Source: Escherichia coli (GTDB lineage Bacteria > Pseudomonadota > Gammaproteobacteria > Enterobacterales > Enterobacteriaceae). From it: DNA of 49,379 nucleotides. A model generated the notes under the pieces. It ran no database searches. It was not told the DNA's origin and worked only from the letters and a program-made list of their open reading frames with translations. Made by a program: the position numbers and the translations under genes. Below are positions 14,000 through 29,487 of this stretch, one piece after another; the stretch's first letter is position 1, and every line of letters begins with the position of its first letter. Where the stretch lies: NCBI RefSeq assembly GCF_003334315.1, contig NZ_QOWR01000034.1, one strand, 5' to 3'.

Positions 14000-14320
14000 G
14001 ATTGGTCGCTCGCGCCGCATCCGAAATTGGCAGTGTGCCTGATGCGACGCTATTCGCGTCTTATCCGGCCTACCAGAGATAGCGAACCGTAGCTCGGATA
14101 AGGCGCTCGCGACGCATCCGACATTGGCAGTGTGCCTGATGCGACGCTATTCGCGTCTTATCCGGCCTACGAGAGATAGCGAACCGTAGGTCAGATAAGG
14201 CGCTCGCACCGCATCCGACATTGGCAGTGTGCCTGATGCGACGCTGTTCGCGTCTTATCAGGCCAGCCAGAGATAGCGAACCGTAGGTCGGATAAGGCGC
14301 TCGCGCCGCATCCGACAAAT
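14000..14320. repeat. Tandem BIME cluster: three 97-bp units made of alternating REP palindromes
   Basis: GCATCCGA recurs at 14017, 14114, 14211 and 14308 (exact 97-bp period); each unit holds GCCTGATGCGACGCT...GCGTCTTATC(C/A)GGCC and CGGATAAGGCGCTCGCG REP motifs. Confidence 0.85.
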
Positions 14321-14335
14321 GTGTTCAGCGATAGA

Positions 14336-15121
14336 TTAGCTGGCCTGCTTTTTCATCATACTGAGAATAAATAACAGTGCCGCACATAGCACCACCGACG
14401 GACCCGCCGGCGTATCGTAAACCGCGGAAAAGGTTAAACCGCCAGTCACTGCCACCATCCCCACCAAAACAGCGACACCAGCCATCTGTTCCGGCGTGCG
14501 GGCAAAGCGACGCGCAGTAGCAGCAGGAATAATCAGCAACGAAGTAATAATCAACGCACCGACAAATTTCATCGCTACACCAATCGTCAATGCCGTCACC
14601 AGCATCAATAACAATTTCACGCGCTGTAATTTCACACCATCAACAAACGCCAGATCCGGGCTAATCGTCATCGACAGCAAATTGCGCCATTGCCAGAACA
14701 AAATAGCCACCACGATGACCACGCCAATGGCGATGGAGATGAGATCTTCCGGCGTCACTGCCAGCAAATCACCGAACAAGTAAGCCATCAAATCAACACG
14801 AATATTAGACATCAGACTAACGACCACCAGGCCCAGCGACAGGGCACTGTGCGCCATAATCCCTAATAACGTGTCGATCGCCAGCTGTGGACGCTTCTCC
14901 AGCCATACCAGACCGCCCGCCAGCAGCAGCGTAACGGCAATCACCGCATAGAATGGATTCACGTCCAGCAACAAACCAAACGCGACGCCAAGTAATGAGG
15001 CATGAGCCAGCGTATCACCGAAATAAGACATACGACGCCAGACTACAAACGAACCCAGCGGACCCGCGGCACAGGCGAGCATGATCCCGGCTAACCAACC
15101 GGGAAATAATAATTCAATCAT
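14336..15121 (-). CDS. znuB: High-affinity zinc ABC transporter permease
   Basis: 261-aa polytopic membrane protein; start overlaps the znuC stop (ATGA at 15118-15121). Confidence 0.95.
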
Positions 15122-19402: not shown

Positions 19403-19436
19403 GTAGGCCGGATGTGGCGTTTTCGCCGCATCCGGC
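19403..19436. repeat. Single REP element between lpxM and pykA
   Basis: GTAGGCCGGATGTGGCGTTTTCGCCGCATCCGGC matches the REP consensus. Confidence 0.75.
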
Positions 19437-27707: not shown

Positions 27708-27750
27708 GTGTCTTTATTGCTGATGTTGATTTCTCAACCGAAAAGAAATA

Positions 27751-27770
27751 TACTGTATAAAATCACAGTT
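27751..27770 (+). promoter_or_regulatory. LexA operator (SOS box) of yebG
   Basis: TACTGTATAAAATCACAGTT fits CTGT-N8-ACAG with the AT-rich centre, 18 nt upstream of the yebG ATG. Confidence 0.8.
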
Positions 27771-28096: not shown

Positions 28097-28501
<405 letters not shown>

Positions 28502-28527
28502 TGGCTTCTGATAATTCGATTGACCGT

Positions 28528-28612
28528 TGGCGGATGCGGCGCGAGTGCCTTGTCCGCCCCAGAACGCACCACAATCGTAGGCCTGAGAAGACGCAACAGC
28601 GTCGCATCGGGC
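28528..28612. repeat. Degenerate REP pair (BIME-like) in the yebF-yebE intergenic region
   Basis: GGCGGATGCGGCGCGAGTGCCTTGTCCGCC and GCCTGAGAAGACGCAACAGCGTCGCATCGGGC are both REP-like palindromes. Confidence 0.6.
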
Positions 28613-28827
28613 AATCAGCATCAAACAATGCCACTCAAAACGACAAACTACTTTCACCTAAAATACCCTTATCACCTGATATACAGTAAATACCTTACCT
28701 GGCGCGAATTTCTTTGAATAACGGCCTACCGCCCCGCTTATTTGCGCATCTTTTGTCTCGATATACATTTTCTGACATCCTCATCCGCTATGCTACAGGC
28801 ACTAAAAATGGTTATTGAGGAGCAAAT

Positions 28828-29487
28828 ATGGCTAACTGGTTAAATCAGCTGCAATCCCTGCTTGGGCAAAGCAGTTCTTCTACCTCCTCGTCTGCGGATC
28901 AGGGATTGGGCAAACTGTTAGTGCCAGGCGCATTAGGCGGACTGGCTGGGCTGCTGGTCGCAAATAAATCAGCACGTAAACTTCTTACGAAATATGGCAC
29001 CAACGCGTTACTGGTTGGCGGCGGAGCGGTAGCGGGTACGGTGCTGTGGAATAAATACAAAGATAAAATTCGCGCGGCGCATCAGGACGAACCGCAGTTT
29101 GGCGCGCAAAGTACGCCGCTGGATGAGCGTACAGAACGTTTGATCCTTGCGCTGGTCTTTGCCGCTAAAAGTGATGGTCATATTGATGCCAAAGAACGTG
29201 CGGCAATCGACCAGCAATTGCGTGAAGCCGGCGTGGAAGAGCAGGGGCGTGTACTCATTGAGCAGGCAATCGAACAACCGCTGGATCCACAACGCCTGGC
29301 TACCGGGGTCCGCAATGAAGAAGAGGCGCTGGAAATCTATTTCCTGAGTTGCGCGGCTATTGATATTGACCATTTTATGGAACGCAGTTACCTGAATGCA
29401 CTGGGTGACGCGCTGAAAATCCCCCAGGATGTTCGTGACGGCATTGAACGCGATCTCGAACAGCAAAAACGCACTTTGGCGGAATAA
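28828..29487 (+). CDS. yebE: Inner-membrane protein YebE (DUF533, TerB-like C-terminal domain)
   Basis: 219-aa ORF with a Ser-rich N-terminus, one hydrophobic segment and a charged C-terminal domain. Confidence 0.85.

Follow-up and report, generated by a model that had tools for sequence, protein, structure and literature searches.

Locus and extent of the spacer

The stretch of Escherichia coli DNA analyzed here (the window, 49,379 nucleotides in full) is the reverse complement of the E. coli K-12 MG1655 chromosome around 1.93 Mb, and published positions were converted to it by taking the MG1655 coordinate (NC_000913.3) as 1958535 - p, with p the window position. At the locus of interest, purT lies on the minus strand of the window, followed by yebG, yebF, yebE and ptrB on the plus strand. 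The coding sequence of yebF (28145-28501, plus strand, from the ORF list; 357 nt, b1847 in MG1655, so named by RefSeq in every hit) ends with a stop codon at 28499-28501, and that of yebE (28828-29487, plus strand), which encodes a TerB-family/DUF533 inner membrane protein of the Cpx regulon, starts with an ATG at 28828. Between them lies a plus-strand spacer of 326 bp (28502-28827). The sequence and the ORF list thus confirm what the initial annotation had read here, namely that yebG, yebF and yebE are co-directional and that yebF and yebE are set apart by a 326-bp gap. The spacer of MG1655 is equally long (yebE end 1929707, yebF start 1930034) and differs from that of the window by 1 nt.

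The same annotation had called this spacer unusually long and had proposed comparing its length across strains. Within E. coli, the length hardly varies: a 526-bp query covering the region was found in all 5,426 complete genomes (95-100% identity), in one piece in 5,418 of them, and the spacer measures 326 bp in nearly all. To look beyond the species, we scanned for YebE with one genome per species, which gave 80 loci. The distance from yebF stop to yebE start was 85-102 bp in 34 species (Citrobacter, Salmonella, Kosakonia, Phytobacter and others) and 276-326 bp in the Escherichia lineages. In other words, the spacer is long with respect to other genera, but not as a variable trait within E. 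coli. The difference amounts to about 230 bp, which lie after the yebF stop and ahead of the conserved promoter block described below; this segment is specific to Escherichia and consists of a pair of repetitive extragenic palindromes (REPs) and a 121-bp tract. Most other Enterobacteriaceae have just the promoter part, in a spacer of about 93 bp, the REP pair and C-rich tract being a gain of the Escherichia lineage. Siccibacter and Cedecea carry insertions of independent origin at this site. The locus may serve as a small evolutionary example of the lineage-specific gain of a REP and putative Rho-loading (rut) module.

A degenerate REP pair follows yebF

The spacer opens with two imperfect palindromes. 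REP1 (28527-28562, plus strand; stem core 28529-28558) begins 26 nt past the yebF stop and resembles the Y type, and REP2 (28575-28616, minus strand) resembles the Z type; they stand tail to tail with a 12-nt linker, inverted with respect to each other, as a one-unit BIME. We presume the Y and Z typing from the family consensus and from the two copy classes of a BIME cluster elsewhere in the window (14009-14316). REP1 is 88-92% identical to one of these classes (14095-14314; 92% over 26 nt to the copy at 14289-14314), and REP2 is 87-91% identical to the other (14036-14264). Their arms at 28527-28542 and 28599-28614 are inverted repeats of one another (repeat I1), and both the minimum free energy (MFE) and the centroid structures of 28490-28640 contain REP1 and REP2 as two separate hairpins (-55.3 kcal/mol, z -2.7). 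Each of the 5,426 E. coli genomes was hit by a 93-bp query covering the pair, with at least 40 places per genome (the median, and also the upper limit of the count, which 3,747 records reached), while the adjoining 125 bp, its single-copy neighbor, hit one place per genome. The pair thus combines palindromic hairpins, similarity to the family, dispersed high copy number and an extragenic position with inverted Y/Z arrangement, and the degenerate REP pair that had been noticed from the letters alone is borne out by its inverted repeats, its folds, its identity to the BIME cluster and its copy number.

REPs that cause ribosome stalling have been reported within about 15 nt of a stop codon. An Rfam scan at a permissive E-value returned naRNA4 (RF02564) at 28.3 and 27.2 bits, below its gathering score of 59.5, and otherwise spurious eukaryotic matches, all of them sub-threshold. 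A third, very degenerate REP was considered at 28701-28731 (GGCGCGA...CGGCCTAC, repeat D3) but found no support, as it had no Rfam match and is not conserved in other Escherichia.

A C-rich, G-poor tract of Escherichia

Directly after the REPs lies an untranslated, C-rich and G-poor tract of 121 bp (28617-28737, plus strand), which we propose as a Rho loading (rut) region. It holds 38 C against 14 G (C/G 2.7), including a G-free run of 35 nt (28643-28677), and its G-C skew is the lowest among all plus-strand 121-nt windows of the 49-kb stretch (0.06th percentile); within the spacer tract the skew reaches -0.58 to -0.71. Untranslated RNA that is rich in C and poor in G is the textbook need for Rho loading. 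The tract is found in one place per E. coli genome, which rules it out as a dispersed repeat, and is absent from other genera. In four other Escherichia lineages its C excess is retained (C/G 1.9-3.2) despite indels of 25-40 bp, and in one natural isolate, strain 50EVAW, it carries an IS1 insertion. An 18-bp tandem direct repeat (TCACCTAAAATACCCTTA / TCACCTGATATACAGTAA, 28654-28689) lies within it, in an area of low GC content (35-40%), and is deleted in two Escherichia lineages. The initial annotation had singled out an AT-rich segment after the REPs as the presumed yebE promoter. The segment 28617-28737 is not that promoter: the mapped start of yebE transcription (28801) and the conserved promoter elements (within 28738-28800) lie further downstream. 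Its striking property is the bias of C over G rather than its AT-richness.

The small ORFs of the spacer are not conserved. The frame of the 62-aa ORF corresponds to 10-72 codons and that of the 65-aa ORF to 13-41 codons in the four other Escherichia lineages, with premature stops or frameshifts affecting these two ORFs in all four. Minus-strand ORFs of 36-38 aa vary as well, so that the four spacer ORFs are each broken in two to four of these lineages; where they do align, they mostly track REP sequence. RefSeq places no feature under the spacer (28524-28737) among the records listed. The earlier judgment that the 62-aa and 65-aa ORFs are unlikely to be genes is therefore upheld by their broken frames and their lack of annotation, and the small spacer ORFs should stay unannotated.

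Transcript ends and Rho-dependent termination

A terminator scan found no hairpin followed by a T-run on either strand of 28502-28827, and the sequences past both REPs are without T-runs. The absence of a U-run terminator, already remarked on in the initial annotation, thus stands, but a missing U-run does not imply missing termination. Transcripts that cross yebF toward the spacer originate at the yebG promoter, where a promoter scan matched TTGATT-17-TATACT at 27726-27754 and where a LexA box of the form CTGT-N8-ACAG lies at 27753-27768 (plus strand), in line with the SOS inducibility of this promoter and with the LexA motif listed for yebG and for "yebG, yebF" (PMC3009722).

In the Term-seq data of Adams et al. 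2021 (supplementary file 1, PMC7815308), an RNA 3' end is recorded at MG1655 1929972(-), which is window position 28563 on the plus strand (listed flank 28513-28573). It lies 5 nt past the REP1 stem and 62 nt past the yebF stop. It has a mean read count of 84035, is classed as "orphan" and was called for one growth condition out of three (PMC7815308), probably LB at OD 2.0, judging from its position in the file. The same study lists a Rho termination region at MG1655 1929742(-), or 28793 on the plus strand of the window (supplementary file 2, PMC7815308). Upstream and downstream reads were 79/18 in the untreated sample and 60/68 with bicyclomycin, giving a Rho score of 4.97 (p 1.0e-7; PMC7815308); as the score was computed with 800-nt windows, 28793 is a coarse position. 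Upstream of it lie at least 80 nt of untranslated, C-rich and G-poor RNA, the ORFs across the tract not being conserved, and the published data show relief by Rho inhibition (PMC7815308, 800-nt windows). Both properties are those looked for in a Rho-dependent terminator. The initial annotation had held that a transcript covering the spacer as a discrete RNA would speak against its reading; an sRNA of that kind is not indicated, but a stable 3' end does lie inside the spacer.

Thomassen et al. 2010 found that, after UV, yebF is fully and yebE partially controlled by LexA (PMC3009722). This difference fits leaky insulation between the two units.

The yebE promoter occupies the last 90 bp or so

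The start of yebE transcription was mapped by Kim et al. 2012 (supplement, PMC3415461) at NC_000913.2 1927758(-). The yebE upstream sequence given there (...CTGACATCCTCATCCGCTATGCTACAGGCA; PMC3415461) ends in ...GCTATGCTACAGGCA, which places the start at 28801 on the plus strand of the window and leaves a leader of 27 nt. It is supported by 5 reads under non-inducing conditions and is the sole yebE start in that data set (PMC3415461). A -10 hexamer, TATGCT (28789-28794, plus strand), lies at the right distance from it, at -12 to -7, and matches the family consensus TAnnCT; across 71 aligned sequences its A never varies, and conservation of its T and C reaches 90% or more. Further upstream are two other conserved elements. 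The motif AGACAtTTCCTGACA (TATACATTTTCTGACA in E. coli; 28762-28777, plus strand) spans -39 to -24 and so overlaps the -35 position; it is near-invariant in Escherichia, where a single column (28768) varies between T and C. The direct repeat TTTGC-GCATC-TTTTG (28741-28755, read as a CpxR-like box on the minus strand) is centered at about -53 (about -60 to -46), is shared by about 70 species, also by those in which yebF is not upstream, and does not vary within Escherichia. Together these elements make up a family-wide block, ATTTgCgCaTCTTTaG-N7-AGACAtTTCCTGACA-...-TAnnCT, in the 105 bp upstream of yebE in about 70 species. The block is present also where yebF is not the upstream gene (Enterobacter, Kluyvera and Buttiauxella) and is nearly invariant within Escherichia (window 28738-28800). 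The yebE promoter is therefore the last 90 bp or so of the spacer and not the whole of it, a placement that is relevant for the widely used PyebE reporters of Cpx activity.

Regulation of yebE by Cpx is well documented: its Cpx dependence is 9.8-fold (PMC2731931), a PyebE reporter is induced by copper (PMC6226299), and the gene is in the CpxR iModulon and the RegulonDB target lists (PMC7657598). Read on the minus strand, the direct repeat (CAAAA-GATGC-GCAAA) agrees with the CpxR box GTAAA-N5-GTAAA at 7 of 10 positions in E. coli, a common, chance-level quality, and at 8 of 10 in many other genera. A search for the box with at most two mismatches found none in the spacer; over the window, such matches numbered 61, with 39 expected. 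We therefore regard 28741-28755 as a putative CpxR site because of its conservation and its position. A sigma-70 promoter scan of the spacer gave no match, even for the real, activator-dependent yebE promoter. Two layouts drawn from conservation alone, one with CTGACA as the -35 and one with GACAnT as the -10 and a Shine-Dalgarno hairpin in the leader of yebE itself, were dropped given the mapped start at 28801, and GCATCTT-N18-TCTGA was discarded as a sigma-E-like promoter because of its spacing.

A hairpin at the yebE Shine-Dalgarno sequence in other genera

In most genera, the stretch from the conserved TGACA to the start codon of yebE is able to fold into a strong hairpin that has the Shine-Dalgarno (SD) sequence as its 3' arm. 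In Citrobacter, for example, the fold has -27.1 kcal/mol (z -5.1), and in Salmonella -26.5 kcal/mol (z -4.9). What remains in E. coli is a degenerate version, a weak anti-SD/SD inverted repeat (28778-28821, plus strand) that joins TCCTCA (28778-28783) to TGAGGA (28816-28821), with its 5' arm upstream of the transcription start. RNAalifold returned no consensus structure on 71 leader sequences. An 11-pair helix that we specified ourselves was paired in 75% of cells, compared with 40-51% when the partner columns were slid, although this helix had been derived from the very sequences on which it was scored; compensatory changes are seen in it, one pair for instance switching from U-A to G-C. The strength of the hairpin tracks genome context (Mann-Whitney p 3e-11, uncorrected for phylogeny). 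The median z was -4.45 in the 34 species that have yebF directly upstream with a spacer of at most 102 bp, -2.1 in 7 species with a spacer of 121-157 bp, -2.4 in 7 species with a spacer of at least 276 bp (including E. coli at -1.2), and -1.3 in 23 species without yebF upstream. A terminator-like hairpin follows yebF in six of the seven species with a 121-157-bp spacer.

One tentative, and in our judgment rather doubtful, scenario is that in the ancestral arrangement of about 93 bp the -10 and the start of yebE lay in the loop of a strong SD hairpin, and that this insulator decayed in Escherichia once the REP pair and the putative Rho-loading tract had been inserted upstream and had taken over its role. 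If so, RNA reading through from yebGF would carry both arms, its 3' side would be capped and yebE would be translationally silent on it, while RNA initiated under Cpx control would start inside the loop and be freely translated. One insulation mechanism would then have replaced another.

Interpretation of the spacer

Taken together, the data suggest that the spacer is a non-coding module of three parts, comprising the REP pair, a C-rich tract that loads Rho and a Cpx-activated yebE promoter, which separates two differently regulated units; we consider this account likely. In this account, the 3' UTR of yebGF mRNA, which is SOS-inducible, would contain the REP hairpins, and these would fix a stable 3' end where REP1 has its base (28563), probably by blocking 3'-to-5' exonucleases. 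The tract at 28617-28737 would load Rho, and most of the polymerases that move past the REPs would be released by it ahead of the yebE promoter or close to it (mapped region 28793). The remaining minority would continue into yebE, which would explain the partial LexA dependence of this gene. The last 90 bp or so would act as yebE's own sigma-70 promoter (-10 TATGCT, start at 28801, 27-nt leader), which the Cpx envelope-stress system would activate through the conserved, CpxR-box-like repeat near -53. Three points sit less easily with such a module. A rise in yebE promoter activity induced by bicyclomycin could mimic the signal of Rho read-through; the 3' end lies after REP1, whereas an exonuclease that trims from the downstream side should halt at REP2; and the tract tolerates large indels and, in one natural isolate, an IS1, so that its exact sequence is not constrained.

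A rival view is that the additional 230 bp or so are passive, a selfish REP pair with filler DNA that has no effect on expression, in which case yebGF transcripts would fade non-specifically and the 3' end and the Rho signal would be incidental. REPs are indeed dispersed over hundreds of intergenic sites, the middle of the spacer differs by indels of 25-40 bp between Escherichia lineages and harbors an IS1 in strain 50EVAW, other genera do without the segment, and the independent insertions at the same site in Siccibacter and Cedecea suggest a permissive spot. However, no other stretch of the 49-kb window has so strong a bias of C over G, and the lineages have kept this bias though not the sequence; composition that is kept while sequence changes is the pattern expected from selection on composition. 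A discrete and abundant 3' end at the base of REP1, with a significant Rho score just downstream (PMC7815308), likewise argues against mere fading. With Rho terminators, a passive and a functional reading are not easily told apart, since termination occurs on any long C-rich RNA that is not translated; on balance, we think a passive spacer improbable.

Two further accounts would give the spacer an active role of another kind. The segment between the REPs and the promoter could be an additional, Escherichia-specific input to yebE, such as a second promoter, an UP element or sites for nucleoid proteins or regulators. The yebF-yebE spacer was picked up by genomic SELEX with RpoD holoenzyme, with a proposed promoter TTGTCC-15-CACAAT (PMC3946193), and the 18-bp tandem direct repeat at 28654-28689 and the low GC content there (35-40%) could be read in the same direction. 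The SELEX motif was assigned by pattern, though, has a spacer of 14 bp and not 15 on recount, and sits inside the REP pair (about 28549-28575). Furthermore, the promoter scan of the spacer was without a match, a single yebE start is listed (28801; PMC3415461), two Escherichia lineages have lost the direct repeat, and strong Cpx-dependent induction of yebE is seen in Citrobacter (bioRxiv 10.1101/2022.08.05.503015), of which the species we sampled carry only the spacer of about 93 bp. We therefore rate such an input as very unlikely. Less likely by far is a product of the spacer's own, either a small protein (from the 62-aa, 65-aa or minus-strand 36-38-aa ORFs) or a REP-derived sRNA like naRNA4. 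The ORFs are present in E. coli, the stable 3' end at 28563 has a high read count and weak naRNA4 matches exist, but the four ORFs are cut short or frameshifted among other Escherichia and are unannotated by RefSeq in the records listed, the naRNA4 matches (27-28 bits) are far under the gathering score, and the Kim et al. 2012 supplement (PMC3415461) lists no transcription start in the part of the spacer before 28801. Given this last point, the most suitable reading of the end at 28563 is that yebF mRNA, or an intermediate of its decay, ends there.

Under the three-part account, yebGF and yebE are to be treated as separate, leakily insulated units. All components of the spacer are of known kinds, and its individual features (the REP pair, the 3' end, the Rho region, the Cpx-dependent promoter and the transcription start) are already recorded in public data sets for E. 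coli, though they are not known to have been described jointly. A text search of the literature for the yebE-yebF pair returned no match. The long, seemingly terminator-less gap of E. coli is therefore not a gap in knowledge, and it matters little beyond tidy annotation.

Comparison with known systems

The hairpin near the yebE start in Citrobacter, Salmonella, Kosakonia and Phytobacter resembles SD-sequestering leader hairpins: a stem of 11-12 bp pairs CCCCTCG... with ...CGAGGGG, including the SD, and the folds reach -20 to -27 kcal/mol (z -4 to -6). The E. coli version is weak (z -1.2). Unlike in such leaders, the 5' arm would lie upstream of the transcription start if the start is placed as in E. 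coli, so that the hairpin would form only on RNA reading through from yebF and not on yebE's own mRNA.

With the REP and BIME elements of E. coli, for example that of malE-malF, the pair between yebF and yebE shares imperfect palindromes of 35-40 nt with GATGCG(G/A)CG...GCCTAC-type sequence, an extragenic position just past a stop codon, the inverted Y/Z arrangement, membership of a multicopy family and an RNA 3' end at the base of a hairpin. It differs from the family in that its copies are degenerate (the tail of REP1 reads CCGCCCCAG instead of CCGGCCTAC) and from the BIME cluster at 14009-14316 in being a single unit rather than at least three in tandem; moreover, at 26 nt past the yebF stop, REP1 is outside the distance of about 15 nt at which other REPs are reported to stall ribosomes.

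The yebE promoter recalls promoters activated by CpxR, such as those of cpxP, spy and yccA, in its strong Cpx dependence according to the literature and in a conserved direct repeat of pentamers with 10-bp periodicity, which lies upstream of a weak -35 of its own. The putative yebE box is, in contrast to the GTAAA-N5-GTAAA box found upstream of the -35 in CpxR promoters, inverted and matched at 7 of 10 positions in E. coli, and unlike the other promoters that of yebE has a second conserved motif, AGACAtTTCCTGACA, at -39 to -24.

As for Rho-dependent terminators, the case made here comes from one genome-wide data set with 800-nt windows, unlike that for terminators mapped to the nucleotide, and the termination region abuts an active promoter, unlike the usual arrangement. 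What is shared is more than 80 nt of untranslated RNA in which C far outnumbers G and little structure is predicted, a drop in coverage just downstream of the tract that is sensitive to bicyclomycin, and a 3' end at the upstream hairpin, as expected after trimming by exonucleases.

Features of the yebE promoter region

Overlapping the −35 position of the yebE promoter is a family-conserved motif, AGACAtTTCCTGACA (28762-28777 in the window; approximately −39 to −24 relative to the yebE transcription start site, TSS), which contains two GACA pentamers spaced approximately 10 bp apart. The motif matches neither a correctly spaced −35 hexamer nor the CpxR box. The yebE Shine-Dalgarno sequence (SD) pairs with an anti-SD sequence (CCCCTCG...) in a predicted hairpin (28773-28830), whose loop contains both the −10 element and the TSS of yebE. 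The comparison of this hairpin across genera covers the approximately 55 to 60 nt upstream of yebE in loci L004-L081 of our scan of yebE and its upstream DNA, which sampled one genome per species. Among genera in which yebF ends approximately 93 bp before yebE, the predicted hairpin is strong (median z score −4.45, approximately −22 kcal/mol). Only a weak version is predicted for E. coli (z score −1.2) and for loci without yebF (median z score −1.3).

Loci of the latter kind, defined by the absence of yebF within 2.5 kb upstream of yebE (L039, L041, L044-L046, L048-L056, L064, L067-L068, L071-L072 and L075-L081), include those of Enterobacter, Kluyvera, Lelliottia, Yokenella and most Buttiauxella, with yebG directly upstream of yebE in most of the Buttiauxella. 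A published orthologue table likewise lists orthologues of yebE and yebG, and none of yebF, for Klebsiella (Kim 2012, PMC3415461). The yebE promoter block is kept whether yebF is present or absent upstream.

Variation of the yebF-yebE spacer

The E. coli spacer is not in one piece in approximately 8 of 5,426 genomes, and in one natural isolate, strain 50EVAW, an IS1-family element (L082, 3127-3824) interrupts its C-rich tract at a site equivalent to approximately 28683 in the window. Comparable C skew in 121-nt windows occurs elsewhere in the sequence only around 14521-14551. Other REPs in the window form a BIME cluster at 14009-14316, where at least 3 tandem units alternate Z-type REPs on the plus strand with Y-type REPs on the minus strand, or stand singly (at approximately 3912 and at 19407-19436).

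Spacers of other genera have expanded independently at the site directly 3′ of the yebF stop codon. The insert of Siccibacter turicensis (L047, 2086-2503; 418 bp) carries tandem GCTGATGTGCTGC-type repeats, and that of Cedecea colo (L077, 2237-2524; 288 bp) lies between two copies of a terminator-like hairpin. Six further species (L034, L037, L061, L065, L069 and L073) have spacers of 121 to 141 bp, in which yebF is followed by a GC hairpin and then T-rich sequence.

Published transcript signals in and near yebG

A Rho termination region with a Rho score of 5.49 has been reported antisense to yebG (Adams 2021, PMC7815308; MG1655 position 1930523 of NC_000913.3, plus strand), corresponding to approximately 28012 on the minus strand of the window. 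Such a region implies antisense transcription that enters from the side of yebF and proceeds in the direction of purT. In addition, a TSS attributed to yebF, with a 258-nt leader, lies within the yebG coding sequence (Kim 2012, PMC3415461; NC_000913.2 position 1928672, minus strand; approximately 27887 in the window), and yebF may therefore have an additional, LexA-independent start.
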